DNA from: Stegostoma tigrinum
Lineage: Eukaryota
Direction: 5' to 3'
NCBI RefSeq assembly: GCF_030684315.1
Contig: NC_081369.1
Span: 57,516,477 to 57,580,476, forward strand
DNA length: 64,000 nucleotides
The translations under genes and the position numbers were made by a program. Below the pieces are notes generated by a model, which saw only the letters and a list, made by a program, of their open reading frames with translations, was not told where the DNA came from and made no database searches. Positions 694-60,890 of this stretch are shown piece by piece. Every line of letters starts with the position of its first letter. The first letter of the stretch is position 1.

Positions 694-925
694 AAAAAAA
701 AAAATCAGAAATTGCTGGAAAAGCTCAGCAGGTCTGGCAGCATCTATGGAGAGAACTCAGGATTAACATTATAGGTTGAGTAACCCTTCCCGTTCTGAGG
801 AAGGGTCACTTGGCTCACACCGTCAACTCTGACTTTTGTCCGCAGATGCAGCTGGACCTGCTAAGCTTTCCCAGCAATTTTTGTTTCAGATTTACAACAT
901 CGGCAGTCCTTTTTGGATTTTTCTC
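694..925. mobile_element. Decayed family-B palindromic mini-element, approximately 11-bp TSD
   Basis: agtacccaaat (683-693) and agcacccaaat (926-936); arms are reverse complementary. Confidence 0.8.
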
Positions 926-1949
926 AGCACCCAAATGAGGATTGTTTGTTAGCTCTATCTGAGGGCAGCCAGGAATGGACAGTAGATGCTGCTTTTGCTG
1001 AGTTTTTATGATATGTGGAAGAAAGAAATGCATTGTAGCTCAGACGCCTTTACTGTACATTTGATAATTTCCCTAAAGCTTCAGTGACGAATGGGTACAT
1101 TTGGCTGTGCCGTCCCTCACGTGAGATGATAAACCTTTTGACAGGTTGCAAAGGCAGAGTCTGAAGAGGGATAATGAGATCTCCTGGTGTCTTGGCTTAC
1201 ATTTCTCCCAACCAGTGTTGTCAAATTACGAGATTCCTTACGCACATAATCCTTTTTGCGGCTACTGATATTTAACAATGACAGCATTCCAAAAGCAGCT
1301 CATCATTGTGCAGTGCTCCTGGGTCTTTAGGTAAATCAGATGCAATTTTCTTTCTCATTTTGTGTTACTCATTAAAATCAAGTTGCCATAGTACCACTGA
1401 CTCATTCAAAAGCGACAACTGACGATGAGTTTAATCTGAGGGTCACCACATCTTGGGCTAAGATTGAGAAAGAGTGTAACTCTACCAAGTGTGGGAATTG
1501 ACCCCATGCTGTTAATATTGCAAGCTAGCCATCCAGCCAATTGAGCTGAGTCAGCCTTAAACAGAGTAAGCTCGTAAAATAAATACAGGTTGAAGATACC
1601 AGCCTGATTATCACTGTGTGAGAGGCAGAGTAACATCTTACTCTGTGCCCAAATTATTTAGCTTAGAATAATTCCTTATTATTTTATACAAATACCACAG
1701 TAGAGGGAGAGGTCATTCAGCCTATTGAATTCATGTCAGCTCCCAGTAGAGCATTCTACTCCATCCCATTCACTCTCCTCATTGCTACCCCCACCAGCAA
1801 ATTTATTTCTCAAAAAAATGCCCATCCAATTTCCCTCTGGAATCAGATTCACATTTTTTTTGAGCCTTTATTGAGAAAGCACTGACAAATCTCATGTGCT
1901 GGAGAGCAGTCAGAGATTACATTTATAGACCAACTGCCATGTCCTTAGC

Positions 1950-2148
1950 AACAAAACCAGAATTTTCTGGGAACTCTCAGCAGGTCTGGCAGCATCTGTG
2001 GAGAGAAAGCAAAGTCTGAACAAGAGCCGTTGGACTTGAAAAGTTAACACTGCTTTTTCTCCACAAATTCTGCCTGACCTTCTGAGTTTCTCCAGCATTT
2101 CTATTTTGTTTCTGATTTCCAACATCCGCAGATCTTTGCTTTATTTGT
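1950..2148. mobile_element. Decayed family-B palindromic mini-element; further family-B pieces at about 9040-9088/9463-9515, 10600-10687, 19975-20070, 24470-24565, 26942-27120, 33470-33545/33775-33902, 34925-35012, 57505-57600 and 60135-60368
   Basis: Shared motif ctcagcaggtctggcagcatctgtggagag and its reverse complement. Confidence 0.8.
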
Positions 2149-2214
2149 TTCATGCTCTTGGAATCTTCTGAAGTGCTTCACAGCATTTGAAAAATGTTAC
2201 TGAATACTGTTTAT

Positions 2215-2495
2215 TTTTTATTATTTGTTCACGTGCTGTGGATGTCACTGATGAAACCAGCATTTATCACCTGTCCTTAATGGCCCTGGAGGAGGTGGTG
2301 GTGAGAAACCTGATGCACTGCGTTATTTGGGATGCATTGACACCACCAATGCTGATGGGACGGGAGGTCCTCGATCTCGTCCCCACAACAGTGAAGGAAC
2401 GGAGACGTATTTTCAGAGTCAGGATGATGAGTGGCTTGGAGAGGACCTTGCAGTTGGTGGTATTCCCATGTGTCTGCTGCCCTTGTCCTTCTAGT
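2215..2495 (-). mobile_element. 3' fragment of the 17800-19236 LINE family; others at about 7500-7830 and 13560-13800
   Basis: ccagcatttat...ggtggtggtgag...tttcagagtcaggatg...ttgcagttggtggtattcccatgtgtctgctgcccttgtccttctag is the reverse complement of about 18945-19215. Confidence 0.8.
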
Positions 2496-4284: not shown

Positions 4285-4390
4285 GTTTTGCTCCAATTAG
4301 TGGAATGTGCAGCAAGTACCGAAGCTGTACCATCAATGAGGACACAGGCCTTGGCCTGGCTTTTACCATTGCTCATGAATCTGGACATAA
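4285..4390 (+). CDS. ADAMTS18: ADAMTS exon (106 nt): catalytic domain, first half of the zinc-binding motif
   Basis: Acceptor tttgttttgtag|GT, donor CATAA|gtaagt; encodes (G)[34 protein letters not shown](N). Confidence 0.96.
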
Positions 4391-7300
4391 GTAAGTGATT
4401 CTTATGCTCTGTTTGATCCACTTTGTCAGGCCTCCCATTTTGATTTGCTTTTGCCAGGGCTGCCCCAGCTGTTCAGGTCCCACTGGCGTTCTCCATTGGC
4501 AAGACCAAACAATGGATATCAGCAGCCTAATAAAAACTGAAAAAAAAACTGCAGAGGCTGTAAATCGGGAACAAAAACAAAGTTGCTGGAGAAGCTCAGC
4601 AGGTCTGGCAGCATCTGTGAAGGAGAAAACAGAGTTAACATTTTGGGTCTGGTTCTGAGGAAGGGCCACTTGGGCCCGAAACGTTAACTCTGTTTTTTCC
4701 TTCACAGATGCTGACAGACCTGCAGTGCTTCTCCAGCAACTTTGTTTTTGATATCAACAGCCTATTCACCATGGAAGGCATAATGGCCTCACATGATCTG
4801 CTCACATTTCTGAAGTGGGACTTGTTGACATATCAGTAATGCCACTGTCCAGAGCCCGAGGCATTTGGTTCAAATCCTACCATGGTAAGTAGTGAAATTG
4901 ACATTCAATTGATTACATCTAAAATTGAAAGCTTGTTTCAGAATAATATCAACCATCAATTGTTGTCAAAATCCATCTGGTTTCTAGGAAGGAAATCTTT
5001 CGTCCTAACCTGGTCTGACCAACATGTGACTCCAGACCTAAACTGCCCTCTGAAATGGCCTAACAAGTCACTCAATTGAACTGCAGAGATGGGATTCTCA
5101 GGATTGTGTTAGTTCAGCTATGGTTTCAATTCTAAATGCAATTTGGACAACAAACGTTGATGAGCAATACCCACATTGCATCAAATAATAAATAAAAAGG
5201 GAACCTTCTGCATTTGAGGGGGGGGCAAGAATGCTGCTCACTGAACCACAGCTGAGGTGAATAATTTTAGGGAGAGAATTTTCAAGTGAGGGAAGACTGA
5301 AAACTGATTAACCATTGACGGGACAGAGAGAGTTAACAGGAAAGCAAGAGGTTTACATAAAAGAGAGTAGGTGGCTGGTGGCAGGAAGAAAATACTTCTC
5401 AAGAAACCTGTTCTGGACCATAAATCAGCTAAAGCAGCAATTATTATGTTTTATGCCTAAACTTATCTAAGTTATTAATAACCTACCTAACAATCAGAAT
5501 CAGAGGCCTACCTAAGAATCAGAGAGAGCTGTCTTTTACTTATTCATTCACGGGATATGGGCATCACCGGCTAGGCCAACATTTATTGCCCAGAGAACAG
5601 TTCAGACTCAACCACATAGGAGTCTGAGAGTCACATGTAGGTCTGACCAGACAAGGACATCTGATCCTTTTCCCTGAAGGACTTTCATGAACCGTGTGAG
5701 TTTTGATAGTAAAGGTACATGGCCACGATTAGGCTGACTTTTTATACCAAATTTTTGTTAACTTCAAATTTCACCATCTGCTTTGGTGGAATTGAAAGCC
5801 AGCACCACTGCCCCACCCCACCCCACCCCCGCCTTGGCTCCCCTTATGGCATTAGCCTGGATCACCACTACAGTGATATTACAACCGTGTCCAACCAATA
5901 TAGTTGAGGGTTTGAGTCTGTTATTATTGACGATGAGCTCCTGGAAGCAAGTTGGGAAGCTAATGGAGATGTTTGAACTGTTGAAGATAAAATAACGAAT
6001 GCCTTGGAGGACCTTTAAAACACTGAGTGGGCCCGGATAGTTTGGTGAAATTCAGTGATTGATAACCATGCAACCAAAGGTAATTCCTGCCTTGAATTTG
6101 CTCCGGTAAATGTGTCTTAGGATTTTTATTTTTGTTTTGTCTTGTTGGGTTTATTTCCATTTGAAACTGAGACAATCAGCTCCTATTGACATCATTGTTC
6201 CTTAACCCCAGTGAGGACAAAGGTAAATAATGGCCCCTCCTGATCACTGTGAGTGAAATGTGTGGGTGTGTGGATCAACTCATCATGTGACTGGATTGGC
6301 GAGGATGCCCCCTGCTCTGTCTTTGCTTGCCACTTTGGATGTGCCTCTGGAGGATTGTTAGACTCCATGAGGTTGAAACAATCTTCACCCCTTCTCTACC
6401 TACTGCACCTGGCAGTCAGGCCTCATCAGCCAAGACTGACCTTGATCGAACGCATGGTGGGAGCTGGAATTGAAAACTCTGCCAGACTGTATAAGTGGTG
6501 ACATTGTTCATGGAGTGGGAAAAAGGAAAAGCAAGAACTTGTTATGTGATCAGAGATAATGGGAACTGCAGATGCTGGAGAATCCGAGATAACAAAGTGT
6601 GAAGCTGGATGAACACAGCAGGCCAAGCAGCACCTAGGGAGCACAAAAGCTGACGTTTCGGGCCTAGACCCTTCATCAGAGCCTGTGAGCCTGGAGTGGT
6701 ACTGGAACAGAAAACTCACTTTGGCAAAGGGGCGGGTTGTGAAAGGAAAGCCACTCACTTTAGTTTTCAGAGGGGAAAAGGGTTTGGAGGTTGAGAAGTG
6801 ATGATCTGGCCCTGGAAGTGATTTGAGGAAGCTGCTGCTTCCTCTTTTCCGGTCATTAGCATTCACCCCATGTAGAGAAAATGTTACGGCTTTTATGATG
6901 CCTGTGGTCACTAATTGTATATGGCCTCAGGCTGAGTGCCTCAGTGATTTGCTGTCGGCCTCGGGAGACTAAGGCTCTTCCTGTTCATTGTCGTGCACGT
7001 CAGATCAACCAATGCTGACTTTTTATTGGATTTGTTTCCAAAAATACTGCAAAGCTGTTTGAAGAGGAAGAAGGGAACCTGATGCATTTTGTGCTTGATA
7101 ATGCCACCTCCACCCCTCAGTAGCACAGCAGGTTTAATTACATCATCAAGCTGGGAAGATCTGAGGCACAGTTCCTGAGCCGCGCTGTCAACTGATTGCA
7201 TTTAAGAGCCTTCCATTACCAGCCCCCCAGAGAAAAATAAAGACCTCTGGATTCACAAACATGATAGTCAGCTCATATACAGTGAGTTCTCTCAAACTGC

Positions 7301-10300
7301 AATCTAGCAATGCGTAGAAAAGCTACGTTATTAATGTTTGCTGAAGGACCTTTATTAGCCAGGCAACAGAGAGACCTTTGCTCTTCTTCACTGTAGTCCC
7401 ACCAGATATTTTACATCCAGCTGAAAGACTAGATGAGGCATCAGTTTAGCATCTCAACTGAAAGGTGATTCTTCGGCATGCTGTGAGTACTTCTTAAAAC
7501 TTTCTTCATGGGATGTGAGCATCACTGGCTGGGCCAGCATTTACTGCCCATTCTAAATGGCTCTGGAGCTGGTGATGCTGACATGCCTTCTTAAACTGCT
7601 GCTGAGGAAAGGACACATATACTGCTGGTAGGGAGCTAATTCCAGGATTTTGACTAAACAGCAGTCAAAAAATGACAATATATTTGCAAGTCAGGATGGC
7701 GCGTGGTTTGAAGGAGAACTTGCAAGTGCTGGGGTACCCTTCCGTATCTACTGCCATCGGTAGAAGGTACATGCTTAGAAAGTACAGTCGAAACAGCCTT
7801 GGTGAGATACTGCAGTGTATTGGCCTAGGTTACTTGTTCATCTCCAGAAATGGGCCTTCAATCCACACCTTTTTGACTTGGAAACATGTGAATAAGGAGC
7901 AGCGTAAGCAGCATCTTAGGAGCAGGAAAGCCGACGTTCCAGGCCTAGACCCTTCATCAGAAATGGGGGAGGGGAAGGGGGTTCTGAAATAAATGTGGAG
8001 AGAGGGGTGGGGGAGCAACTGCAGCTCTCTCGTAATCTCTTCGGCCTTGAAACTGCTCGATCATGTCCTGCACCTTTACTGGCTCCATCCCTGCCTCTTT
8101 AACTTGTCTGTCTCCTCTCCACCCATCTTCTCCTCTATCCAGCTTCGATCTGCCTCTCCCTCTCTCCCTATTTATTTCAGAACCCTCTCCCCCTCCCCTA
8201 TTTCTGATGAAGGGTCTAGCCGGAAACGTCAGCTTTCCTGCTCCTAAGATGCTGCTTGGCCTGCTGTGTTCATCCAGCTCTACACCTTGTTATCTCAGAT
8301 TCTCCAGCATCAGCAGTTACCATTATCTCAGGAGCAGAATGGACCACTCAGTTCCCTCAAGTCTGCTCCATCATTCAAAGTACAAAGAAAATTACAGCAT
8401 AGGAACAGGCCCTTTGGCCCTCCAAGCCTGCGCCAACATGCTGCCTATCACAACTAAACCCTGCGACCCTTCCAGGGACTGTATTCCTCTATTCCCATCC
8501 TATTCCCATTCCTTCAGTGAGATCAGGACCTATCTGATAACTCCACAGATTTTTGCCCATCCCTGGTTACCCATCACCCTCCTGTTTGCCAAGAAACTAT
8601 CTATTTTCATGTCTATCATGTCAAGATTCTGCTTCCATTGCCTCTAGCAGAAGATAATTTGAAGGCTACATGGCCCTCACTGAGAAAGAAGTGATCCTTA
8701 TTGCTGTCTAAACTAGGAAGCCCGTTATTTTTAAACAGTGATCTCTTTTCCAGTCTTCTTCAAAAGCCAACCCCCCACCCCCCCTTTCCTAATAAAAGCT
8801 CAGTAAACCTTTTATGAGCTACTTCCAATGAATTAACACCTTTGCTTGAATGAGATGACCGATACTGTACACAATACTCCAAATACAATCTTACCAATGC
8901 TTTGTATAACTGAAACATAACTGTGCTATTTTTGTATTTTATTCTCCTTTGAAATAAACTGACATTCTATTAATTCTCCTCGTTATTTGCTGTATCTGCA
9001 TATTAACCTTTCACAATTCATTCATAATATTACTCAGAAGCAAAAACAGAAATTGCTGGAAAAGCTCAGCTGGTCTGGCAACATCTGTTTTACACTCCAG
9101 GAATATTAAACAAATGGGTTAGATTCTGACTGCAATACCTGTCTGTGTGTATTGTTGGCTGGACATTCTGGTTTGTAAGACTGTAGTGCTGTGAGTGGTA
9201 CAGTGAGGGCAACAGCCATAAAGTCATAAGCATAAGCATGTGGAAGGAGCTGCTAGTGGAAGTGCTTGAAGTGGGTACGTTAACAACATTTAAAAGGAAG
9301 TTGGATAAATACATGGAAAGGAAAGGTTTAGAAGGATATGGGCCAAGTGCAGGGAATTGGGGTTAGTGTTTCTGGACATTTTGGGTGTCAGCATAGATCA
9401 ATTTGGGCCAAAGGGCCTGTCTCCATGCTGTAGGACTCTATGACTCCATGACTCTAAAACGCTATCTGTGGAGAGAAATCGCAGTTAACGTTTCAGGTCC
9501 AGTGACCCTTCCTCAGGACAAGATTACTCCCATCCCTTTGCATCTCAGAGCTCTGTAATCTCTGACCATTTAGATAGCATGCTTTTTTTTTTATTCATCC
9601 TGGCAATGGCAAATTTTAGCTTTATCCAAATACATTCCATTTATCAGATTCATCCACTCAATACTTTTCTATATTTCTTTACAGTATTCTTATGTTCTCT
9701 TCAATACTTGTTTTCACAGTTACCTTTGTGCCAGCATTAATTTTGGTCACCATATCTTCGGTTCCTCCATCCACATTATTTGAACGAATTGTAAAAAGTT
9801 GAGGTCTTAAAATAGGTTCCTGTGACACACAACTCATTACATATTGTCAACTGGAAAATAACCCATTTATGTCTCCTCCTTGTTTCCCTTTAGACTACCA
9901 GTCTTCTGTCTATGCTAATATTTTACTTCCTACACAGTGAGCTCTGATTTTCTACAACTTAATGTCTTTGATGTGGCACCTTATCAAATGCCCTCTGGAA
10001 ATCTAAGTACAGTACACCCACCAGTTCCCCTGCATCCACTTTCTCGACTAACTCCAATCCATTGGTTTAACATGATTTCCATGTCACTTAACGTGTCAGT
10101 TAGCTCAATTGGCTGGACAGCTGTCTGCTGACACACAGTGACACCAACAGTGCAGGGTCAATTGTTGCACCAGCCGCAGAACCAGGTATTGGTGACCCTC
10201 AGGTTAAACTTACCACCATTTGTCTCTCTCTAACGAGAGGGCAGCCCTATATTTTTTTTTTTCTTCCTTCACAGGATGATGGGTGATTTATTGCCCTTCC

Positions 10301-49300: not shown

Positions 49301-52300
49301 GCTGGAACCAAGCATAGGAAGCATTGAGCTCATCAGGGACAGAATTGTCTACATCTGCTATCTTACACTGTCTCATTTTGTATCCTGTAATATTGTTTCG
49401 GCCTTGCCGTAGACAGCTGTCTGAGCCTCTAACTTGGCCCAGTACTGCCTCACTGCCTCCCTGACAGCTTTGTGGAGGTCATATCTTGATTTTCTGTATT
49501 GGCCCAGGCCACCTGACTTGAATGCTGCATGCCTGGCCATCAGCAGGAAGAGGATTTCCTGGTTCATCCTAGATTTTTACTCTGTGTGTAAGAGGAGGTT
49601 CACAAATTAACTTGTCAGTGTTTCTGGAACTATAACCTTTTGAACCAGTATATATCTGAATCTGGAGCCCTCCTGGATTGATGGCAAGAGTTTATTTATA
49701 TTGTGAATCTGAGATAACATCTGGGAAAGCAAACATTGAGAGCTCCCCACCACCTCTTTGACCCGAAGAAAGTGGGAGGTGTAAAGGGCCCCTAGCCACA
49801 GGTCTTTTTCTGATACATCAATGCTGCTTCCATCTGTCATCTAGAATTGGTAAAATTTATCAATTTCGCTTCCAATTTCCAGCCTGCTCTCACCTCCACC
49901 TGGCCCATCTCTGATTCCTCCCTTCCCTACTTTGACATCTCTGCTTCAGTTCTGAAAGAAGGTAATTGGACCCAAAACATTAACTCTGCTCTCTCTCCAC
50001 AGATACTGCCAGATCTGCTGAGGTTTTCCAGCAAATTTTGTTTCCGTTTGGGATAGATTCTTGATCTGTTGGGGAATTAAGGGTGATGAGGAAAGGACAG
50101 GGAAGTGGGCACCAGAAATGTTGGATCAACTGTGATGCTGTTGAATGGCAGAGTAGGCTTGATGGGGCCAAGTGGTCTACCCTGTCCCTATTTCAGGTGG
50201 TTTTGCAACTCAATTAAAAAGACTCAATTAGAGGCAGCTTGGATGTATGACTGTGGGCTGTGAGTTATATAAAGAAAATGATTATATGCTGTGTTGTTCT
50301 TCGGCAAGACTCAGCCAGACCTGAGGTACAGTTGTAAGCACCTTGATAAATTCCTAGTCTAAAATAAAGTCGAACATGCCCTGTCTTGTGCTCTGACTAG
50401 AGAAGAATGTCAGAATTATTACTGGAACAGCAGTCTTATTTCTTTGTGATATTTGACAGTTGGAAAGCATTGAATATAACATATTGAAAATGGGAGATTG
50501 TGGGTGATCTCATCAAGATATTACCCATGATAAATATTTACCAGGGTAGAAATGGAGAAATGATTTCATCTCACAGAGGAACAAACAGCAAGAACCCATC
50601 ATCTTAAATTATCATTCAGGAGTGAAATCAGTATCTTATTCTCCATGCAGAGAGTATCAAAGTTTGCAGCCTTGTCCACCAAAAAGACACTGCATCATTT
50701 GACATTTTCAAACTGTGATTGAGAGATTTTCGTTGGTAACTATCATGCAACAGTTGAATGTGACTTAGGTTGAGAGAAACTCTGAGCTAACTGTATGGCA
50801 CCACATCTTTGGTGAGCCTCCTCCAGTTTCAGTTCCCATGTTCCTGATACCTTAAAACCAAGATTCCTAAATGACACACACTGTAATTTTTAAACTAACG
50901 AACGTTAACAAAAACATTCCCTACATTAAAGTAGCAACAGAAGAAAAATGAGTTTTGCTATCTAATAGATAGATACAAACCAGACAGTCTGCATCAAAAC
51001 AGTCAGAACAATTTCCTCGCAGAACAATTTATTATTGCTAGTAAGGAAGATTTGATCTAACTTTGGAAGGATGTGGGAATGAGGGCATTAGATGTTATGA
51101 TTTCATTTCGGCATGGTTGTGTTTTGTAGACACCACTTGAATCTCATTAGTTATAAGGGTTGTGAGTGTATCCCACACTAATGAGCTGCTTTCTTTATGT
51201 AGGCCACAGGAATGCCTATTCCATGCGTTATTGAGTGATAACTTCACTGCTTTCCCCATCGCTCCAACCATTGACAAGGAAATACACGAAAAAACTTCCA
51301 GAGAATTTAAGTTTCTGCATGATTTCTCTTTAAAATGTCTCAAATGGCTTCAGTTTTGTTCTGTCAGTCGTGGAGGCTAGTGTCACTGTGAATCTTGTCT
51401 TTTCAGGTCTTGTCATTTGAATTATTTAAAATAAATTCACGTCACTATTGGCACCCTGGGCATATCATTAGCTGTTTAAACCAAATTGCCAGTGTGACCT
51501 GAGGGACTCATGTTTTTACCACTGAAGATTAACTACTGGAAACATGTGCTTGTGACAGTGAGGTCTTTTGGTCATGTCTGATGACCATTGTCTTTTGGTG
51601 CAACACCAGACTGATTTTTCATCGGCTGATGACCAGAACCCTCTGCTGGATTCAGGTTTGATTTGGTCTACTTCAGTGCATAGACACATATTACATCCCC
51701 ATCGACCATTTTGACATTTTTTCAAGGACTAAATCTGAAATGTTTCAGTTACGCAGTGAGACCTCATCTGGAGTACTGTGTACCTGTACCAGTCTCTGTA
51801 CCTACTGAAAGATGTCAATGTGTTGGAAGCACTTCAGAGATGATTTTGTGGACTAATATTGGGAATGAGCAGGTTACCTTTTGAGATCATAACTGGGAAA
51901 TTGGTTGAGTGGCAGACAACAGAATGTAGGGATATAATGGGTAGATCCTCAAATTGGCAGGATGTGACCAGTGGTATCCCACAAGGATCTGTGTTAGACC
52001 CTGAATTATTCACACTATTTATTAATAACTTTGGATATTGGCATAAAAAAATCATGTATCCAAATTTGCTGAAGGCACAAAGTTCAGCAGCATTGTAGAT
52101 TATGTAGATTATAGAACAGAATGATAAAGGATTATTGAAAGACTAATTGGCAAAACAGATGGAGTAAGCAAATGTGAAGTTATCAAAAGAATAGATCAGG
52201 ATACTTTATAAATCATGTGAAGTTAAATACAATGGATGTCCACAGAGACTTGGAAGTTCAGATGCATCAATGTTTAAAATGTCACAAACAGGTGCAGAAA

Positions 52301-55300
52301 ATAACCAAGAATACCAATGGAATTTTGGCCTTTATACCTCATGGACTGGGGTACAAAGATGTGGAGATTGTGCTGAATTCATGCAAAACCTTGGTTAGAT
52401 CCCATTTGGAGTACTGCGGGCAGATATAGGCACCGCACCTTAGCAAGAACATAGAACAGTACAGCACAATACAGGCCTTTCGGCCCACAATGTTGTGTCG
52501 ACCTAGTATGGATATGGTCTTGGAAGGAGTACATGGCAGGTTTACAGAAAGATACTCAGACTTCAGGGTTTAAGTTATAAGAAGAGATTTTACACATTAG
52601 AGATAACAAAGTCTAGAGCTGGATGAACACAGCAGGCCAAGCAGCATAAGAGTAGCAGGAAAGATGACATTTTGGGTCTAGACCCTTCTTCAGAAAACTT
52701 CAGAAAACATTTCTGAAGAAGGGTCTAGACCTGAAACACCAGCTTTCCTGCTTGGCCTGCTGTGTTTGATTCAGCTCTACACCTTGTTATCTCAGATTTT
52801 CCAGCATTAGCAGTTCCTATTATCTCTTTAATAAATTAGGGTAGACAGCAATCCAGAATCCTAAGCTGATGTTCTGGGGACCGGGGCCTGAATCTATCCA
52901 TTGTAGATGGTGAAATTTAAATTTAACTTGGAGAAAAAAATAATAATTCTGGACTGAAGTGGTTTCAGAGATATCAGGAACTGCAGATGCTGGAGAATCT
53001 GAGATAACAAGGTGTAGAGCTGGATGAGCACAGCAGGCCAAGCAGCATCAGAGGAGCAGGAAGCCTGACATTTTGGGCCTCGACCCTTCTTCAGAAAATA
53101 TCACAACAGCACTTCATATTTATCACATTACCCATTGGCATGGCAAGCAGGACTTTTTTTTTTCGGCTTAATAGAAACAATTCTGAGAATTCTTCCAGGA
53201 TTGGGGAACTTCAGGTAGGTAGGCCGACTGAAGAAGTTAGGGCTAGTAGGAACTGCTGATGCTGGAGAATCTGAGGTAACAAAGTGTAGAGCTGGAGAAC
53301 ACAGCAGGCCAAGCAGCATCAGAGGAGAGGGAAAACTGATGTTTCAGGCCTGGACCCTTCTTCAAAAATTCCTGAAGAAGGGTCCAGAACCAAAATGTCA
53401 GCTTTCCTGCTCTTCTGATGCTGTTGACCTGCTGTGTTCATCCAGCTCTAAACCTTGTTATCTGCAGAGAAGTTAGGATTGTTTTCTTTAGAGATGAGGA
53501 AGTTGAGAGGAATAGAAATATTCTAATTGATGAGGGGCCAGGCCAAAAGGATCAAAACCATGAGGGAACAAATAATTGGCAAAAGAGAGAATAGTGGCAC
53601 GAGGAAATCCCTTTCTGTGCAGTAAATAGTTGGGATTTGGAATAAACTGAGGGTCTGATAGGGGCAGTGTCAACGGAGACCTTCAAAAAGGGAAACGGGT
53701 CAATATCTAAAAAGGAAAAATGCAGGGTCATGTGAAAAGAAAGGTGAGTTGTTTTACAGGTCAGCACAGCCCCCACAGGCCAAATAACCTTCTATAACCA
53801 TTCTATGATGATAAGATTCAGTGTTTTGTTTCATAGACATGTTGTTTAATAATAAATCAAATTCTCACTGGTTAGCAGTTCACAGCAGGGTCACTTTATA
53901 GGTTATTTACAGAGAAGGAGTTTCTTAGCTGGAGGGAAAGAAGAATCACAGTTTGTCTTGGCATCCAGTTAACATTCTAGCTGTCAATCAAACTCTATCC
54001 GAGAGTCAAATTATCTGTTATTTTAGGTTCTTCAACTCTACAGACCGTCTCGTGTCAGAAATGGTGGACATTAAACTTTAAGACTTCTGCAAATATTATA
54101 TGAAACTAAACAGATCAGACTAGCAAAAACTAAACTTGGGGTTAAACTACTCTCGCTCCTTCACTCTTTTGCTCTCTGTCTTTCACACTTTCTACTCTGT
54201 TGGCTGCCTCTTTTCCCTTCTCTCTCTCTTCACCAGTCTCGTTTCTCATTTGTCTGATTCTTTCCCCCCATCTCCTCTAACTCTCTTTCTGTCATTTCCT
54301 TCTCCATCTCTCTTTACGCCTCTTTCAGTAAATCCCTTTGATCTCTCTTGGTGTATCTCCATTTCTGACACCCTTCCTATCTGTCTGATTTCCTCCTTCT
54401 GTCAGGACCTATCTCTTGCAACTTCCTCTTTTTCTCATCCTTTCCAACTCCTCGCTCCGGTCTTTGTGCTGGCCATCATTGCACTCCACTGGCACCATTG
54501 AAGGAGCAGAGTGAGAGGTTAACTACAGCAGACAGCCTGCCCACTGCTTTTCAACTGGTCCCTGTGCTCTCCATGATATTACCAGGGGTAGAGGGCCACC
54601 CTGCTCCACAAGTTTTACCCACATTTTCCCCTCCAGGTCAGCCACCTCCTTTATCCAGTTGAAATCCTATCACCTCACTGCCCTATTTTCCAAGGCTGCT
54701 GGCTTGGCTGTAGCAGGAATATCTGGACCCTACCTCCATAGATTAAATTGTACAGTGCCAGAGAAATTTTGAACTCTGGGCCGACAGTGTCTTCTATCTT
54801 GGATTCCCTTTGGGAAGGGCATTTTTTTTTCATTTTGTCCATGAGAGGTGACTCTGGCTGGCTATATCAGTATTTATTAAGAGTCAATTCCGTTCCTGTG
54901 GATCTGCAGACTCATATATAGATCAGGTCTCCTTAGAGTAAAGGGAAGACCTTTCAGAACAGAGATACGGAAAAACCTCTTCAGTCAGAGTGGTGAATCT
55001 ATGGAATTCACTGCCACAGAAGGCTGTGGAGGTCAGGTCATTAAGTACATTTAAGACTGAGATAGATAGGTTCAAGGGGTTCAAGGGTTATGGGGAGAAA
55101 GTAGGAGAATGGGGTTGAGGAACTTATCAGCCATGATTGAATGTCAGAGCAGACTTGATGGGCCAAATGGCCTAATTTCTGCTCCAATGCCTTATATTCT
55201 CATGGTCAGATGAGAGAGGCTGGTTTCCTTCCCTAAAGGAGATTAGTGACCCAGGTGGGGATTTATGGCTATCAACCTTGGTTACATGGTCGCTGTTGCA

Positions 55301-57020
55301 TTAGCTTACTTTATAAATGTGAGATATTTACTGAATGCATCATCTGCCATGATGGGATTTAAACTAGGATGGGATTTCCCTCAAACATGAGATTGGGGTT
55401 CTAGATCACTCCATCAGTGACATTAAAACCTATTGCATCCAGTGCTTCCGATGTGGTTTTCTCTATGTTGCTGAGACTAAACGTATGCTAGGTGACTGTT
55501 TCGCCAAGTGTCTCCACCCAGGCCTGTAATGGCCAGCCCACCCTCCCGGTCACTGCCCATTTCAACTCCCCATCCCATTCTCCCTCCAACATGTCCATCC
55601 TTGGCCCCCATCAGTGTCTCGGCTACACCCAATGCAGATTTGAGGAGCAACACTTTATCTTCCACCTGGGCACCCTACAGCCCTAACAACTCAACTGTTG
55701 AGCTCTTCAATTTCAAATAACCTTCCCACCCATCCCCAACACCCCGCTACATCCCCAATTAAGCTAAGTAGTGGCTCAATGGTTAGCACTGCTGTCTCAC
55801 AGCGCCAAGGACCTGCGTTCGATTCCACCCTCAGGTGACTGTCTATTTGGAGTTTGGACATTCTCCCCATACTTGCATGGGTTTCCTCTGGGTGCTGCAG
55901 TTTTCTCCAAGTCTAAAGATGTGCAGGTTAGGTGGATTGGCCATGCTAAATTTTGCCCCTTGTGTCCCGGGATGTGAAGGCTAAGTGGATTAGCCATTGG
56001 GGAGTACAGTGTCAGAGGGATTGGGTGGTGGGATGGGTCTGGGTGAGATGCTTATCAGGGGTTGGAGTGGACTCAATGGGCTGAGTGGCCTGTAAGGATT
56101 CTACGCAAAAGCTCTTGCTCATGATGGTAAGCATCTGGTAGGTCCTGGGGAATGATCCTGTGTTGTACTTCTCTTGTACAGGGCACTCAGTCAACCAGCT
56201 ATACCTTGGTACTATGGAGCAGTCCACAAGCCTGCTGGTTTTAAAGTTACCAGCTTGTGAGCATGAGTGCAAAGAGTTAAGCTGTTTCAACACAATCACT
56301 CCACAGCAGGCTTTCTACTTAGTGAAGCACCAGCGAACTGATCTGTTGCCAACCAATGCAGAGCAGGTTAATAAATATTGTCAGCTGTAACTCGCGCTAA
56401 CAAAATCTTGCTGCTACTGCATGTTAAGGAATTGTCCATCAGACCTTGTAAAACGCTTCTCATTTTACGTAAATTGGAGAGACTGGGCTATGAAGCAGAA
56501 ACCACTTGAAAAAGGGTAATAAATATACTGGTGTTTTTTATTTTGCTTTTCACACTCAGTGGATGCTGCACAATGGCTTGCTGCCAGACAAAGTCATGTT
56601 GCTGATGTAGGGAGAGTGGCAATTGCTTTGTCTGCAGCAAGACCCCACAAACAGCAGTATGACCTGTGAGTAGGTCGATGATTTTCAGAGGGCTGATGGA
56701 CAGACAGGGCTCGGTAGTCAGGACTTCAAGGGAGATATCTGCTGCTGTTCTTCAAATAGTGACACCCAGCTGAGAGGGCAAGTGGGCCAAAGGGATAACT
56801 GTCTCATCTGAAGGACAACACCTCTGACAGCAATATCCCCTCATAGTGTCAGGTTGCGTTCTGTACCTTGAGACTCTCAAGTGGAACATGAATCTTCCAG
56901 ATCAAACAAGGAATGCTGTTACTGGGGCTTTGCTGACCATAAAGTGAGAGGTCTTGGTAGTTTTACAAAGCAGATCTGTTACTCACTTCCCTGCAGCCTC
57001 TTCTCTCCGCCCCCCCCCCC

Positions 57021-57056
<36 letters not shown>

Positions 57057-59788
57057 CCCTGCCTCTTGCCCTTTTTGCCTCTCTGTCTCTCTCCCTCTTT
57101 ACCTCTGCCCCTCCGCCCCTCTCTCCCTCCCTGTCTCTCCCTCTCTGCCCCTCTCTCCTGCTTTCCCTCACTCATTTGCCTCTCTGCCCCTCTGTCCCTC
57201 TCTACCTCCTTCCCTCATTGTCTCTCCCTCTCTGTCCTTCTCCCTATCTCTTTCTGCTTCTCTCCCTCTGTCTCCCACTCTGTCTACCTCTAACCCTCCC
57301 TTACTTCTTCTCTGTCTCTCTGTCCCCCTCTCATGCACGCATCCACTCTCATCCCTATCCTCACTCTCTCACTCTCCCATCCTCACTTTCCACAATCATG
57401 CTCCTTAACCCAACTCTGCTGTTTCTGACGTTTAACACTTTCATAACTTTTATTTTCAAATTTAGCTCAGGTTGTGTACGGTCCCTGCATTATAGGTAAA
57501 AAGCAGAACTGTTCTCAGGAACAGTGACTGGGACCTGAAGCAGTCTGCTTTCTCTCCACAGGCGCTGCCAGATCAGCTGAGTTTCTCCAGCAATTGTGTT
57601 CAAATCTCACCTCCTGCCATGTTCAGATTTGAATGTGGCTCAGCAGGACATTGCCTGAGTCACTGGATGTATAATCCAACAACAGCATCACTATGCCATT
57701 ACCTCACTCCAATTAAGTTTTTTTCTGATGACGCCAGCACTGCGAATGGTTGAAGTTATGAGGTAAAAACAGAGAAAGAGCTGCAGGTCACTGCTTTGTT
57801 GCATGTGGCTTGGAAGCGAGTTCATGGGCAGCACTTGGTCATTTTCTCTTTTTCATTTATTTATTCAAAGTTGAGAACAAAAATGAGTGTATGACCGTAG
57901 ATTTGGATTCACTTGGGATAGTTGGGCACGTCAAACTCTCTCACTCTCTTTCTCACTGGCTCGCTCTCTCTCTCTCTCTCTGTCTCTCAAGTTTTTTTGA
58001 AGCTTAGCTCTTGTGCTTGAGCCCAGCTGGGAAGTCTTTGGCTTCCTGCACAGCTGTATGCAGGCAGTTGGATGTCTGCCAACATTGTAATAATCAAATC
58101 AGTTCAGTCAACCTTGGGGAATGATTTAAGGTTTGCCCCGGGGAGGGATTGGAGTTGGAGAGGGGGGGGTAGGAGGGGTGGGGGTGTTGGTGCCTGGGCG
58201 CTGTGTGAGAGAAGCTTTTATAAATCAGGTAATTTGGAAGTAGTCCCTTTGTAAAGGATGAAATGCAAAAAAAAGATTTTTTTTAACAAATCAACTTTTG
58301 TGCCACGTGATGTTTACGTATTTAGTTGGGTGTCACATTGGGAGCATAATTGTCTTTTCCCATCTCTCTCAGTCCATCTCCTGTCTCTTCCCCACTATTC
58401 TCCTCTTGTTCACCCACAAGAGAATGAGGACAGGTCTGTCCAGCATGGTCAGTGACACGTTAGGCAAGTATGTATGTTGCTGCCAGGCAAAAAGAAAGAC
58501 TCTGAACTTGATGTAGTGATTTACATAGCCTCAGGATACCTTAAAGCATTCAATAACTAATTAAGTGCTTCTGAAGTGTAACCGTTGTAATGTTCTGAGG
58601 AAATTTGAGAGACAGTGTTCAAAATCACAAAGTGTTTCAATGGAGTAAATAAAGGACAGTTGTCTGCGGTTCCAGATGGTTCAATAACCAGAGGGGACAG
58701 TTTTAAAGTGAATGGCAAAAGAGCTCGAAGATTCATGAGCAAAGTACTTCTACTCAAGCTGTTGCAATTTGGAATTCGCTGCCTGAAAGAATGGTGACAG
58801 TTGGAGCAATGGCGATTTTCAAAAGGGAGCCGAATAAATGCTGAAAAGGAAAGTCTGACGGAGGTGTGGGCACTGACGGGAGGATTGAGATTATTAGGAG
58901 AACTCTTCCTGACTGGTAGGCCCAAATAACCTCCACCAGTGATGTGAGGGCTTGTGCCTCTAACATCGCCGTGAATTTGCGGCCAGCAAGCTCCCACTGT
59001 GTAGACTAAATCATCTATTTTTGTTGAATTGCTGCCCAGACCACAGGGTGGTTGCTCCGTCTCTGCCTGGGTCCTTTCCCCACATCTGAGAGGGTAAGCA
59101 GGCCTTAGCTTGGTGTTTTAACTGAAAGGCAACACTTCTGATGCCTGTAGTCATGAACTGGAGTGTTAGTCTGGAATTCATGAGAACAGGGTTTTAATCC
59201 ACAAGCTTCTGACTCCAAAAAAGCATGTACTTTACCAGCTGAGACATGACTGACACAAATGCAATGTTTGGCCTTTGTTGTGGTGTAGCCTCGCATGTTA
59301 TCTCGGTTTGGGTATGAAGGCGAGGTAAAGTGGGTAGCTGACACAAGGGTGTCATGGCCCACCATGGAGAAGTGGAGAGCCACCAGCGTTGAGGAAAACA
59401 ACAAGATTAAGTATTAACGGCTGTGGGTATTCACAGTTTGCCTGTGCTTGATTAANNNNNNNNNNNNNNNNNNNNNNNNNNNNNNNNNNNNNNNNNNNNN
59501 NNNNNNNNNNNNNNNNNNNNNNNNNNNNNNNNNNNNNNNNNNNNNNNNNNNNNNNNNNNNNNNNNNNNNNNNNNNNNNNNNNNNNNNNNNNNNNNNNNNN
59601 NNNNCTGTTCCTCAGGCCTCAGTACGGGGGAAAGTTCTGCCATGGCTCCAGCCGGCTCTATCAGATGTGCAACGTACAGGCCTGTCAACACAACGGCATC
59701 CTGTTTCGAGACCAGCAATGTGCTGAGTACAACAGCAAGCCCTTCAGGGGCTGGTACTACAAGTGGAAGCCCTACACAAAGGTCAATG
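4285..59788 (+). CDS. ADAMTS18: Partial multi-exon ADAMTS16/18-family metalloprotease gene, most similar to ADAMTS18; six internal exons, gene extends beyond both window ends
   Basis: Joined exons read [93 protein letters not shown]...[52 protein letters not shown]...[14 protein letters not shown]...[19 protein letters not shown]...[24 protein letters not shown]. All junctions are GT-AG with compatible phases (2,2,0,0,2). Family is near certain. The 18-versus-16 call rests on my recollection of human paralog residues ([40 protein letters not shown]). Confidence 0.8.
4530..4750. mobile_element. Family-B palindromic mini-element with 15-bp TSD
   Basis: Arms about 4572-4650 and 4672-4750; flanked by gatatcagcagccta (4515-4529) and gatatcaacagccta (4750-4764). 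Confidence 0.88.
4651..4689 (+). ncRNA. Putative minimal type I hammerhead ribozyme on the pre-mRNA strand
   Basis: GGUU-CUGAGGA-A-GGGCC(ACUUG)GGCCC-GAAA-CG-UU-AACU: intact core, 5-bp stem II, 4-bp stem I, palindromic ACGU in place of helix III. Confidence 0.65.
6647..6684 (-). ncRNA. Putative minimal type I hammerhead ribozyme (family A, antisense to the gene) within the insert at 6553-6681
   Basis: Minus strand reads AGGCU-CUGAUGA-A-GGGUCUAGGCCC-GAAA-CGUC-AGCUU: GUC cleavage triplet and 5-bp stem I. Confidence 0.65.
7893..8330. mobile_element. Inverted pair of Penelope 3' termini (family A)
   Basis: 7893-8015 is the reverse complement of part of 8160-8260; both match the 42055-42240 Penelope end. 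Confidence 0.85.
8330..10085 (-). mobile_element. Highly degenerate CR1 with nested inserts (CR1 tails at about 8375-8510 and 9240-9455, family-B pieces)
   Basis: gtggcaccttatcaaatgccctctggaaatctaagtac is YLDFQ.AFDKVP on the minus strand; CR1-like 3' UTR near 8330. Confidence 0.7.
10095..10250 (+). mobile_element. Further tRNA-derived SINE family; second copy at about 1400-1555 (-)
   Basis: tagctcaattggctgga...gggtcaatt...ggtgaccctcaggttaaac is shared by both loci in opposite orientations. Confidence 0.7.
12058..12411 (-). mobile_element. HE1-like V-SINE; partial copies also at about 3553-3835 (-) and 33575-33768 (+)
   Basis: Reverse complement of the 41338 element (gtgctaaccactgagc, gtgggaggaaaccagagc, cctaacctgcaca). 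Confidence 0.85.
13205..13558. mobile_element. Rearranged family-A Penelope terminal cluster (inverted plus tandem pieces)
   Basis: Three terminal segments plus the post-terminus sequence acaattttaacc that also occurs at about 43076. Confidence 0.8.
15949..17483. mobile_element. Two diverged, related LTR-like repeat ends in inverted orientation (about 15949-16260 minus and 17110-17483 plus)
   Basis: Collinear blocks agtaca.aaacctg, caggtaaa.t.ggga and cagtgag/tagtgag, both ending TGACA; no internal ORF seen. Confidence 0.4.
17595..17732 (+). CDS. ADAMTS18: ADAMTS exon (138 nt): third zinc-binding His and Met-turn
   Basis: Acceptor ttttaaatcgaag|T, donor CTCAG|gtaggt; encodes (N)[45 protein letters not shown](S). 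Not shown in this frame by the ORF track. Confidence 0.95.
17800..19236 (+). mobile_element. Degenerate CR1/L2-group LINE (second family), RT region to 3' end
   Basis: Fragmented frames give [58 protein letters not shown] and AAHHHLLKG; ends ggaaataagtgctggccagtcagtgacacccacatccc. Confidence 0.85.
20167..20436. mobile_element. Family-A palindromic mini-element made of two inverted Penelope termini, each with a hammerhead-like core
   Basis: Arms of about 132 bp, near-perfectly complementary (about 6 mismatches by eye) around a loop of about 4 nt. Confidence 0.92.
21345..22145 (+). mobile_element. Degenerate CR1 LINE 3' fragment
   Basis: ORF 21384-21881 (DKCEVLHFG...YCVQFWLP...LERVQ..TRMLPG); tail ctatatgactctatga. 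Confidence 0.9.
24103..24256 (+). CDS. ADAMTS18: ADAMTS exon (154 nt): end of catalytic domain and start of disintegrin-like domain
   Basis: Acceptor ttttgttcatag|T, donor GTGAAG|gtacgt; encodes (S)[51 protein letters not shown]. Confidence 0.96.
25141..25478 (-). mobile_element. Same SINE family as 60891; decayed copies at about 96-375, 3862-4105, 4830-5195, 5540-5890, 10265-10580, 19590-19900, 29935-30140, 31045-31270 and 54835-55440
   Basis: Reverse complement aligns along its whole length with 60891-61260. Confidence 0.85.
25700..26935 (-). mobile_element. Highly degenerate CR1 ORF2 middle fragment
   Basis: gtggtacttcatcaaatgccttctggaaattgaaatac (Y.DFQKAFD.VP) and ccatctggac (PDG) on the minus strand. 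Confidence 0.65.
28050..28565 (+). mobile_element. CR1 LINE 3' fragment
   Basis: [32 protein letters not shown] followed by CR1 3' UTR. Confidence 0.9.
30162..30425. mobile_element. Family-B mini-element with an internal hairpin, approximately 13-bp TSD
   Basis: acattggaaaagt (30149-30161) and acactggagaagt (30426-30438); internal inverted repeat about 30204-30283. Confidence 0.8.
31835..32088 (+). mobile_element. Short CR1 3' end with (ATGTTCT)n tail; other short CR1 ends at about 20440-20560, 27150-27350, 33915-34510, 54930-55205 and 58610-58940
   Basis: gatgtcagaggcaggttctttactcagagagtggt...tggaacgccctgcc matches the end of the 36449 ORF; tail tctatgttctatgttct. Confidence 0.85.
32279..32478. 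mobile_element. Family-A palindromic mini-element with approximately 15-bp TSD
   Basis: catatatgacatggc (32266-32280) and cacataagacatggc (32479-32493); minus-strand core CUGAAGA..GAAACGUC is intact. Confidence 0.88.
36341..37361 (-). mobile_element. Young 5'-truncated CR1 LINE: RT C-terminal half, 3' UTR and (ATGTTCT)n tail
   Basis: Uninterrupted 300-aa ORF 36449-37351 with [20 protein letters not shown] and [13 protein letters not shown]; tail seen as (agaacat)n at 36341-36380. Confidence 0.95.
38148..38297. mobile_element. Family-B palindromic mini-element with perfect 15-bp TSD; hammerhead part absent
   Basis: agggagatgaaggct at 38133-38147 and 38298-38312; internal arms are reverse complements. 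Confidence 0.9.
38414..38509 (+). CDS. ADAMTS18: ADAMTS exon (96 nt): disintegrin-like domain
   Basis: Acceptor ttccaccacag|GAT, donor AACAAG|gtaagt; encodes [32 protein letters not shown]. Confidence 0.96.
40062..40210 (+). CDS. ADAMTS18: ADAMTS exon (149 nt): end of disintegrin-like domain and start of central TSP1 repeat
   Basis: Acceptor cttatcatcacag|TGG, donor CCAAA|gtaagg; encodes [49 protein letters not shown](K), with WxxWxxW and CSRTC motifs. Confidence 0.96.
40882..41045. mobile_element. Family-A palindromic mini-element with internal deletion
   Basis: Left arm ends at gcaggccaagcagc; right arm starts aagggtctaggcccgaaacgtcagc and lacks CUGAUGA. Confidence 0.85.
41090..41810 (+). 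mobile_element. Old Deu-domain-type SINE (SacSINE1/AmnSINE1-like) split by the V-SINE; similar relics at about 2830-3180, 15170-15420, 29640-29920, 56620-56900 and 59040-59240
   Basis: gagtgctacactgatggaggtgctgtctttc...tatttatcc...actaaaac, resuming after 41692 with tgtttgtgag...tttcctgtattacaaca...tgaggttgcgaaagg; family name is from recall. Confidence 0.6.
41338..41692 (+). mobile_element. Full-length tRNA-derived V-SINE (HE1-like)
   Basis: A box ggtggctcagtggt, B-box-like ggtttcattcga, V-domain gtgtggagtttgcacattctcc...ctctggtttcctccc, CR1-type tail. Confidence 0.88.
42050..42690 (-). mobile_element. Penelope-like element 3' part (GIY-YIG C-terminus plus terminal repeat), inverted relative to the neighbouring copy
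   Basis: ORF 42461-42769 contains [33 protein letters not shown]; reverse complement closely matches about 43945-44400. Confidence 0.92.
42930..44455 (+). mobile_element. Penelope-like retroelement, internally deleted and frameshifted: terminal repeat, RT C-terminal part, GIY-YIG endonuclease, 3' end
   Basis: YIDD at 43157-43168 is in frame with [17 protein letters not shown]...LSFL...[15 protein letters not shown]; then [39 protein letters not shown]...VANHF...HS and [15 protein letters not shown]. Confidence 0.92.
45353..45448 (-). mobile_element. Single family-A arm with intact hammerhead core on the minus strand, approximately 11-bp TSD
   Basis: gacgtttcgggcctagacccttcatcag; flanks catttaactta (45342-45352) and cagttaactta (45449-45459). 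Confidence 0.82.
45737..45876. mobile_element. Family-A palindromic mini-element with perfect 13-bp TSD
   Basis: tgggtatcttcag at 45724-45736 and 45877-45889. Confidence 0.9.
46155..46790 (+). mobile_element. CR1 LINE 3' fragment
   Basis: Aligns by eye with 28050-28565 and 21500-22145; tail gctgtacaactctatgac. Confidence 0.88.
47725..49572 (-). mobile_element. Rex1/Babar-clade LINE fragment, RT to 3' end
   Basis: ORF 48613-49146 (VFTDIFSL...[15 protein letters not shown]...[14 protein letters not shown]...LQFAY..NRSTEDA...LNTGAP) and ORF 47934-48215 ([14 protein letters not shown]); 3' end ttttcactgtactttggtacatgtgaca plus short repeat tail. Confidence 0.85.
49843..50045 (+). mobile_element. 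Penelope-like RT fragment joined to a family-B terminal repeat
   Basis: [30 protein letters not shown] resembles 43200-43300, followed by decayed agttctgaaagaagg...aaaacattaactctg. Confidence 0.75.
52600..53098. mobile_element. Family-A palindrome (52600-52826), SINE fragment, and single family-A arm (52968-53098)
   Basis: Repeated agctggatgaacacagcaggccaagcagcat...gacccttcttcagaa in both orientations. Confidence 0.82.
53245..53467. mobile_element. Family-A palindromic mini-element inserted in a CR1 fragment, 10-bp TSD
   Basis: agaagttagg at 53232-53241 and 53468-53477. Confidence 0.85.
55435..55735 (+). mobile_element. Older Penelope-like GIY-YIG fragment
   Basis: [23 protein letters not shown]...[15 protein letters not shown] parallels the endonuclease C-terminus near 44000-44170. 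Confidence 0.85.
55771..56103 (+). mobile_element. HE1-like V-SINE
   Basis: gtggctcaatggttagcact...gttcgattcc...tggagtttggacattctcc; same layout as the 41338 copy. Confidence 0.88.
57000..57390. repeat. CT-rich low-complexity tract with a (CT)n microsatellite
   Basis: C run at about 57010-57020, (ct)n at about 57024-57052, then degenerate ctctctgccc units; similar tracts at about 54150-54460 and 57935-57988. Confidence 0.95.
59456..59604. other. Assembly gap (149 N)
   Basis: Run of n characters ending 11 nt before the last exon. Confidence 0.99.
59616..59788 (+). CDS. ADAMTS18: ADAMTS exon (173 nt): end of TSP1 repeat and start of Cys-rich domain
   Basis: Acceptor ctgttcctcag|G, donor AATG|gtaaat; encodes (K)[57 protein letters not shown]. 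Confidence 0.95.
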
Positions 59789-60890
59789 GTAAATATTTGA
59801 ATGTGGCCACTCACGCTTTGGGAAGAGGAACGAGTGTAGAATTGTGTTCCAGACTTGTGCACAGCTAAAGTACTAGGACATTCCATCGAATTTCACCATA
59901 TTGCAGCAGACCATTTTCCTCCATTTTTCTTCCATTCACTCCACCAGCCTCTCCCCACACCTATGTTTACGTCTTGCACTATGTATAAAAGACCCATTCT
60001 GTCCCTTTCACACCTTAATTTGCACCCATTTTGCACCATCTTTCTCCACTATGAACAACCCTGTGTCTTTTTTTTACACTGGGCATCTGCCTCTGTCAAA
60101 AGTATCCAAAAAAAAGAATTCCAACACCTTTCAGTCCTGAAAAAGAGTCATAGTGGACTCAAAATTATAACTGTTTCTCTCTGCACAGATGCTGACACAC
60201 CTGCTGAGTGTCTCCAGTGTCCTCTCAAATTTCCAACATCTGCAATATTTTGCATTTATTAGACCACTTCATCGAATTGATTCAAAAACAGAAATCGCTG
60301 GAAAAGTTCAGCAGGTCTGACAGCATCAGTCGAGAGAAATCAGAGTTCAGTGACCTTTTCTCAGAACGGATCACTCAGTTGATTGGTACTTGAGCTTCCT
60401 CCTACTCGACTTCATTTTATCGTCGTCAGCCACATTCCATTCTCCCTCACGTACCTCCTTCACTATTCACTTCACGTCCTCCTTAGGGGCAAACTCTACA
60501 TTCTCACCACTGTCCGACTTGAGGCGTTTTTCCTTCACCCTTTTTGTATTTAGAAGAATATTTTGTATTAATGACCTCTTGTTTCGGGCTCCTACACATT
60601 CGGAAACGTTTTCCCTGGATCTACCTTGCTGAGATTTCATAATTGTAAAGTCCTTTGTGGTATTGCCCCCTCGCCCTTTTCTACTCGGGAGGAGTCACAG
60701 CAAAAATATTCCAAAATAAGAACTTAAGAAATGTGATCAGGAGTAGACCACAAGGACCCCCTGAAGCCGGTTTCTGTTATTCAGTATGTTTGGGGATAAC
60801 CTTTTGCCTCAATGTCCCTCTGTCTTCCCCCTCCTCACCTCTCTGTTCCCTGAGACACCAAAGAAATACCCATCTCAGCCTTCCTGGGGA

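Follow-up and report, generated by a model that had tools for sequence, protein, structure and literature searches.

Genomes have been reported to contain minimal hammerhead ribozymes of Penelope-like elements (PLEs) by the thousand as solo motifs (Cervera and De la Pena, 2014; PMC4209133), with about 4000 motifs found by descriptor in Latimeria and about 9000 in Xenopus, and also as pairs on opposite strands lying 100-700 bp apart. Inverted pLTRs are described for endonuclease-bearing (EN+) PLEs of Adineta (PMC3846280) and for Naiad and Neptune (PMC8557442), with the published insertion pattern also given in PMC8969392. In vitro work on the Anolis Poseidon element PAc (Frangieh, 2024; PMC11167929) reports two internal reverse transcriptase (RT) start sites that define the tail, cutting and extension of both target strands and a product length fixed by the template's 5' end; uncleaved RNA was used as substrate and the hammerhead needed protein. 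Transcription of D. virilis Penelope starts 46 nt plus a 75-nt intron upstream and not at the hammerhead (PMC2377424), and the end of this intron maps to helix I. Non-LTR retrozymes (bioRxiv 10.64898/2026.07.22.740005) are non-coding, pLTR-derived and carry a type I hammerhead, with one chondrichthyan example. Solo and inverted or opposite-strand hammerhead-bearing PLE ends with tails and target-site duplications (TSDs) are already described as a class.

Here we analyse a 64-kb stretch of the zebra shark (Stegostoma tigrinum) genome, referred to as the window, in which two short repeat families, A and B, recur. These repeats are terminal (pLTR) fragments of Neptune/Nematis-type PLEs, a link that is direct for A and indirect for B. 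They share with the hammerheads of PMC4209133 the CUGANGAH box, the G10.1-C11.1 pair, GAAA, a palindromic 15.2-16.2, an extra base after A9 and a helix I of 2-5 bp, and they are likewise mostly solo and truncated, with pairs on opposite strands. They differ from the hammerheads described there in that family A has a helix I of just 2-3 bp and a competing hairpin, and fixed 5' ends are absent from the description in the sections of that paper drawn on here. With the EN+ elements of PMC3846280 and PMC8557442 they share the head-to-head pLTR, TSDs of 8-10 bp, a one-sided 30-40 bp tail, microhomology deletions and partial tandems. Both families show direct or inverted pLTRs, the one-sided tail of 30-40 bp and a variable TSD. 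However, the inverted pLTR of Adineta, Naiad and Neptune usually flanks an ORF-bearing copy, whereas both shark arms are usually bare units of 100-140 nt, with 29 insertions per 64 kb. PAc belongs to the Poseidon clade while the shark parent is of the linker-bearing Neptune/Nematis type, and fold-back products are not analysed in the part of PMC11167929 consulted. Retrozymes form head-to-tail tandem arrays depleted from introns, whereas the shark copies are solo or inverted, and intronic; no head-to-tail tandem units were found in the window, where the longest tandem period is 22 bp.

In the literature searched, PMC5753468, PMC12602865 and a killifish Neptune paper among it, these shark families are not described, nor is a 5' end fixed at the hammerhead or the sharp end geometry set out below; Repbase, Dfam, a whale shark library or the retrozyme supplements may list them. 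The part of the PMC4209133 supplement searched held no shark term, and the whale shark repeat table (PMC8455134), in the portion available, has 10.85% unclassified and no Penelope row.

Genomic setting and inventory

The window is spanned by a plus-strand vertebrate ADAMTS gene (Pfam ADAMTS_CR_2). Its exon-like peptides lie near 4374, 17650, 24190, 38430, 40100 and 59700, and all repeat arms are intronic, lying outside these exon positions. A gap of 149 N at 59456-59604 ends where an ADAMTS exon-like reading frame begins, and the 5' part of this exon may be missing.

Profile searches built from window copies identified 48 arms, of which 23 are A and 25 B; they lie between 697 and 60370 and total 4683 bp or 7.3% of the window, with no strand bias (25 plus, 23 minus). 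First-round profiles gave no matches in three locally shuffled windows and none in the reversed window. Assigned by hand, the 48 arms make up 29 insertions, 15 of which are head-to-head fold-backs (Table 1), a total slightly above the roughly 25 copies of two families counted in the initial annotation. Short copies outnumber coding copies by 26 to 3 among the 29 loci. The A sequence quoted in that annotation occurs exactly twice (6649-6679 and 45414-45444, both minus), and its B form with intact boxes and stem once (4652-4689, plus).

Table 1. Family A and B insertions and PLE fragments in the window (hammerhead positions are those of C3).
Position	Strand	Feature	TSD
694..928	.	B fold-back; short arm minus, tailed arm plus, degenerate cores	8 bp, exact
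1946..2150	.	B fold-back; sole case of an arm (minus) that begins at the hammerhead cleavage position	
4530..4750	.	B fold-back with the only intact host-sense hammerhead (C3 at 4655)	17 bp, 2 mismatches
6549..6681	-	Tailed A solo; motif intact (C3 at 6679) and antisense to host	
7903..8330	.	A fold-back; both arms include 3' UTR sequence (46 nt and at least 79 nt)	8 bp
9037..9520	-	B solo split by a later 375-bp insertion (9089-9463)	
10580..10690	+	B solo, short end	
13203..13556	.	A fold-back, subfamily with 3-bp Watson-Crick helix I	
13350-13460		Internal partial tandem in fold-back 13203..13556, comprising a deleted hammerhead, the tail and some 60 nt from further downstream in the element	
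19974..20068	+	B solo; 5' boundary, anchored by a TSD, lies about 3 nt upstream of C3	
20164..20438	.	A fold-back; 94% identity between arms, each with a tail (exception); hairpin of -257 kcal/mol	
24464..24569	+	B solo; stem II contains an A-U pair; 5' boundary 4 nt upstream of C3	6 bp only
26940..27117	.	B fold-back	
30160..30425	.	B complex fold-back, three arms	
32281..32481	.	A fold-back	8 bp
33446..33900	.	B fold-back; 222-bp SINE-like repeat inserted at centre	10 bp
34925..35013	-	B solo with tail, without hammerhead	
38148..38297	.	B fold-back; both arms without hammerhead	15 bp, exact
40879..41046	.	A fold-back without complete core	
42047..42688	-	5'-truncated Penelope-like copy with GIY-YIG fragment, 3' UTR, A hammerhead whose C3 is at 42145, and short end	
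42927..44458	+	Penelope-like copy with internal deletion: tailed A arm, RT C-half, CX4CX2C linker, GIY-YIG, 3' UTR and an end that has lost the hammerhead; carries frameshifts and stops	
45353..45448	-	A solo; motif intact (C3 at 45444) and antisense to host; 5' boundary, anchored by a TSD, 4 nt upstream of C3	
45735..45879	.	A fold-back without hammerhead	10-15 bp
49787..50045	+	Penelope-type RT fragment joined directly to B arm	
52600..52828	.	A fold-back; 10-nt duplication at junction	
52964..53098	-	A solo with tail	
53242..53466	.	A fold-back	10 bp
55431..55731	+	Divergent GIY-YIG fragment, no arm attached; SINE-like repeat follows at 55771	
57510..57597	+	B solo, degenerate	
60133..60255	+	B arm with tail	
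60281..60368	-	Short B arm, tail-to-tail (convergent) with arm at 60133..60255	

Parent elements

Family A had been described as the terminus of RT/GIY-YIG elements, and this was borne out at 42047-42688, where the A hammerhead follows GIY-YIG and 3' UTR sequence in an EN-bearing element. A arms also bound the deleted RT-EN copy at 42927-44458. Window fragments of family A align to whale shark protein P0002, which has RVT_1 and GIY-YIG domains, and a predicted zebra shark RT-EN protein (P0003) reads from the EN through the 3' UTR into the A motif, providing an independent link of A to an RT-EN element. The window contains a CX4CX2C linker before the EN at 43796-43822, and a CCHH was read in the EN of P0002. 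A CX2-5CxxC linker together with CCHH in the EN defines the Neptune and Nematis clades (PMC8557442), and this linker motif places the parent of A with Neptune or Nematis. The closest named relatives of the window's Penelope-type RT are from zebra shark, whale shark and bamboo shark; a search of the PDB returned no relative of P0002.

A family B end had also been noted after a Penelope RT fragment. This fragment (49787-49951; tblastn E 4.6e-10) does adjoin a B arm, and it matches ray proteins at 50-67% compared with 39-46% for the A-type element, but neither an endonuclease nor a 3' UTR lies between the two, indicating a jump or deletion junction and not the native terminus of B. A protein search with a B-derived peptide gave no match, none of the 269 proteins collected reads into B, and P0003 is the only one that reads into either motif. 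B is tied to RT-EN elements indirectly, by its homology with A, the same insertion anatomy and the chimeric RT junction. The Penelope-like origin and mobilization by RT/GIY-YIG proteins put forward in the initial annotation are thus supported directly for A and indirectly for B.

Two ray proteins (P0007 and P0011), host gene isoforms annotated with a kinase domain and a chitinase domain, consist of Penelope-type RT/EN sequence and are probably annotation artefacts or exonized elements. Human Eulor/UCON repeats were considered as relatives and rejected: in the source material consulted only UCON13 is named as Penelope, with no link shown.

Hammerhead motif

The descriptor search that had been proposed for the window, for a minimal hammerhead with palindromic helix III, returned three sites against 0.01 per shuffled window (200 shuffles). 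Both families match the published consensus of the PLE minimal type I hammerhead, in agreement with the original identification of the motif. This includes an extra A between positions 9 and 10.1 that is present in all 25 scorable arms and had been left out of the initial annotation. Individual copies are another matter: they had been taken to fit the core, and most do not, with both boxes kept in 10 of the 25 scorable arms and the whole motif in three. The G10.1-C11.1 pair is G-C in 15/25 arms, and the helix III remnant, a palindromic ACGU in both family majorities, is kept in eight. Helix II is 90% paired, with a stem II of 3 bp or more and double changes at two pairs, while helix I has 4 bp in B and a weak 2-3 bp in A.

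Helices I and II together hold 12 double-sided changes among 27 arms, compared to 5.3 in shuffles, with 2/500 shuffles as high, in a control that ignores relatedness. Examples are a G-C to A-U replacement in stem II and the helix I pair 2.2-1.2, which is UA in 11, UG in 10 and CG in three of the 27 arms. These changes point to selection on the hammerhead fold in the parent or source subfamilies, as the initial annotation had suggested.

Rfam covariance models gave no hammerhead match in the whole window at the gathering score, the Rfam hammerhead models gave none at E up to 10 on two intact copies, and RNAalifold recovered almost no consensus structure. A second stem downstream (7 bp with a 4-bp hairpin, 90% paired) showed no covariation and is not claimed. 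miRNA-like matches at 4620-4711 were far below gathering scores and reflect the fold-back.

Relationship of families A and B

The two families had been said to differ outside a shared core. Their majority sequences are, however, homologous from end to end, with identities of 11/11 in the core (the CUGANGA and GAAA boxes, U16.1 and H17, with G12 of the B reference set against CpG decay), 9/10 in stem II, 6/8 in helix I, 30/38 in the downstream block and 10/11 in the tail block. The difference in conservation between core and downstream block was not significant (P = 0.17), so that conservation limited to the core is not supported. Divergence at non-CpG, non-core positions is 17% in B compared to 10% in A, and B is, judged from sequence, the older family.

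Just after the B hammerhead (e.g., 20005-20035 and 4682-4712) lie a branch-like word, a pyrimidine tract, CAG and then ATG, a stretch which we take to resemble a 3' splice site and which is mostly missing from A. In four B arms YCAG stands directly before helix I, the position at which D. virilis has its intron end.

Target-site duplications and fold-back junctions

An exact TSD of 8 bp or more was found at 10 of 26 loci (one doubtful) compared to 28 of 1000 random sites. A second, greedy scoring, which under-scores some exact repeats, gave a score of 8 or more at 9/29 loci compared to 12/600 random sites. The TSDs vary in length from 8 to 17 bp. Eight of the 15 fold-backs are enclosed by one TSD and are therefore single events. 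The fold-backs share with MITEs, DNA transposons with terminal inverted repeats, a palindromic form of 100-450 bp and flanking TSDs, but their arms are asymmetric, TSD length is variable, the interior is not uniform, there are solo copies, and in sequence they are the terminus of an RT/GIY-YIG element. MITE identity is excluded on these features, and we give it next to no credence.

The central junction differs in each of the 15 fold-backs, and a distinct class of mini-elements with master copies of their own is not supported. We regard it as distinctly unlikely, close though this comes to the view of the initial annotation, that the pieces descend from non-autonomous SINE- or retrozyme-like masters of about 140 nt that are self-transcribed and mobilized in trans by a Penelope protein. 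Their fixed 5' and 3' ends and the excess of short over coding copies would fit such masters, and pLTR-derived non-autonomous retrozymes are known in vertebrates, including the one chondrichthyan (bioRxiv 10.64898/2026.07.22.740005). Against this, none of 10 tandem repeats is a head-to-tail array of the unit, junctions differ from locus to locus, a single 5' register is common to at least five sequence variants that would each need a master, and the template continues past the tail into element sequence at 13400-13460 and 43075-43111. At these two sites the same element sequence follows the tail (84% over 37 nt) and then jumps elsewhere in the element, a sign of template switching.

The two B arms at 60133-60368 lie tail-to-tail about 25 nt apart, opposite to all 15 fold-backs, with no TSD found, and are possibly two insertions.

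Ends of the inserted units

Each piece is the terminal unit of the element, consisting of the hammerhead and about 65 nt, with or without a tail of 35-40 nt. These units are inserted singly or as a head-to-head pair inside one TSD of variable length, were copied from RNA uncut at the hammerhead, and decay neutrally. The 3' ends are bimodal, a short and a long class lying 35-40 nt apart, and by manual count exactly one arm is tailed in 14 of the 15 fold-backs, the exception being 20164-20438.

The 5' ends are sharp: 26 of the 30 arms that reach C3 stop within the next 10 nt, compared with a pooled 15/239 per 10 nt inside the unit. Offsets were entered by hand for 45 of the 48 arms, leaving out those at 13368, 44398 and 9037, which have internal deletions or are half of a split copy. 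In family A alone, where the upstream sequence is known, 12/16 arms stop within 10 nt, whereas the B ends rest on a lack of shared upstream sequence and on TSDs. TSD-anchored solo copies have their 5' end at -3 or -4 from C3, while the A copy at 42927 begins at -18. Only 1/45 arms starts at the hammerhead cleavage site, indicating uncut templates, in agreement with the uncleaved RNA used by PAc in vitro. A word YYANWYY with A at -4, which we take to be an initiator-like consensus, is present in both families, in 9 of 12 arms picked by hand among those retaining these bases, compared to a background of 1.2%, and is missing from one A subfamily. Of 16 pairs tested, eight have arms whose nearest relative is the partner, fitting a single RNA for those pairs only, and the other eight weaken the idea of a common RNA.

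Proposed mechanism of insertion

Taken as a whole, the best explanation, which we rate a little above even, has the pieces arising as side products when Neptune/Nematis-type PLEs carry out target-primed reverse transcription. The DNA ends suggest that the element transcript would start 3-4 nt upstream of the hammerhead core. RT would start at one of two fixed internal sites near the 5' end of the transcript, giving the short end or the tail end, and would run off after 100-140 nt to leave a solo copy. Where both nicked target strands prime, one per site and possibly on the same RNA, the two cDNAs would be joined 5'-to-5' with variable loss at the junction, producing a fold-back with one tailed arm. 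Such double priming is comparable to the twin priming of L1 and would need an RT without RNase H. The hammerhead would be a passenger in the insertions and, by analogy, a dimer- or protein-assisted ribozyme under selection in the parents.

The fold-backs with one tail and the two classes of 3' end match the two RT start sites of PAc, as reported in PMC11167929, and count in favour of this explanation. The D. virilis start site upstream of the hammerhead, as given in PMC2377424, counts against a start at the hammerhead, and the A subfamily without the initiator-like word, the start of the 42927 copy at -18 and the two-tailed fold-back at 20164-20438 count against the explanation as a whole, as do the missing native link of B to an endonuclease or 3' UTR in the window and the lower variability of non-CpG core sites when subfamily-diagnostic columns are included.

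With the same origin, the sharp 5' end could have been produced by the element endonuclease, or by repair trimming, at the 5' edge of the hammerhead in the intermediate, or the second arm could have arisen by snap-back self-priming in place of a second target-primed event; we consider this rather unlikely. The Anolis enzyme prefers 5'-ATT-3' (PMC11167929) and the A2 arms begin with ATTT just before C3, but B arms stop in the same register without ATT. The tail is ascribed to EN resolution in PMC8557442 and junction palindromes are read as self-priming in PMC3846280, and in the 1946-2150 fold-back, junction and self-complementary helix I strands overlap. Snap-back, however, does not account for a second arm that also ends at that fixed site, and the short end is also found on solo copies, so it is made without a fold-back.

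Target-primed reverse transcription could be extended to a broader reading, which we put forward tentatively as possible but short of probable. Shark genomes would then be a very large natural record of Penelope integration intermediates. According to this record, transcription would begin at the hammerhead's 5' strand, the enzyme would mostly yield abortive run-off copies from the 5' pLTR, and priming on both target strands would be the work of a dimeric RT-EN that uses two fixed sites of one RNA. If true, the inverted pLTR with a single tail, long unexplained, would be accounted for, and the hammerhead would be the 5'-terminal element of the transcript and not a processing site between tandem units.

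These repeats are known as a class, and their value lies in the data they offer on how PLEs make pLTRs, inversions and tails and on the role of the hammerhead. Their less ordinary feature is the sharp 5' end, and what sets them apart is the end geometry rather than the ribozyme. With fixed ends at such density, twin priming, snap-back and EN trimming are separable by counting in any carpet-shark assembly. Extrapolating from this one window, the fragments may make up a sizeable, under-annotated share of shark genomes and may be a source of long intronic hairpins.

Decay and folding of inserted copies

G12, the general base of the hammerhead (PMC6155905), is part of a CpG; it has been lost from 5/18 arms of A and 9/18 of B, compared with 15/54 and 22/52 for other CpG sites, a similar rate that indicates neutral decay of the core CpG; the arm at 40877 was excluded from this count, its alignment including fold-back sequence. 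Non-CpG core sites are less variable than flanks when subfamily-diagnostic columns are included (P = 0.013 for A and P = 0.039 for B) but not significantly so when these are removed (P = 0.31 and P = 0.52).

The three intact motifs have C3 at 4655 (B, host-sense) and at 6679 and 45444 (A, antisense to host). In folding predictions the minimum free energy structure of the isolated B copy is the hammerhead; in context this copy is sequestered in its own fold-back hairpin of about -138 to -139 kcal/mol, and it has no intact sense partner for a dimer. The A monomers favour a hairpin in which CUGA box and cleavage site are paired with each other (-16.2 vs. -9.3 and -11.4 vs. -3.6 kcal/mol), and homodimers of all three intact copies are predicted to misfold.

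The inserted copies are fossils that decay neutrally and not a ribozyme system, since only 3/25 motifs are intact, G12 is lost at the CpG rate and the sole intact host-sense copy is locked in a hairpin. They are predicted not to cut the transcript of the host gene. That they work on host pre-mRNA as a functional ribozyme or hairpin system is highly improbable, even with the high intron density of the repeats, their 15 long hairpins of -54 to -257 kcal/mol and the hammerhead fold of the isolated 4655 copy. Besides the state of the intact motifs, two of them antisense and the third sequestered, the neutral decay of the core CpG, the lack of strand bias and the preference of A monomers for a competing hairpin all speak against it.

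Other repeats in the window

A search for tRNA genes, run with bacterial settings, found none in the window. LINE RT fragments, presumably CR1-like, are present at 36449-37363 (minus; RVT_1, E 4.8e-13), 21369-22145, 46207-46793 and 28057-28562, and a broken LINE at 47934-49225 (minus), which we take to be Rex/Babar-like, has matches to RVT_1 and an ALKBH8_N-like domain. A SINE-like repeat of 220-330 bp, with 67-77% identity among copies, occurs at 3542-3830, 12056-12407, 33549-33770, 41348-41697 and 55771-56093, and the third of these copies occupies the centre of a B fold-back.
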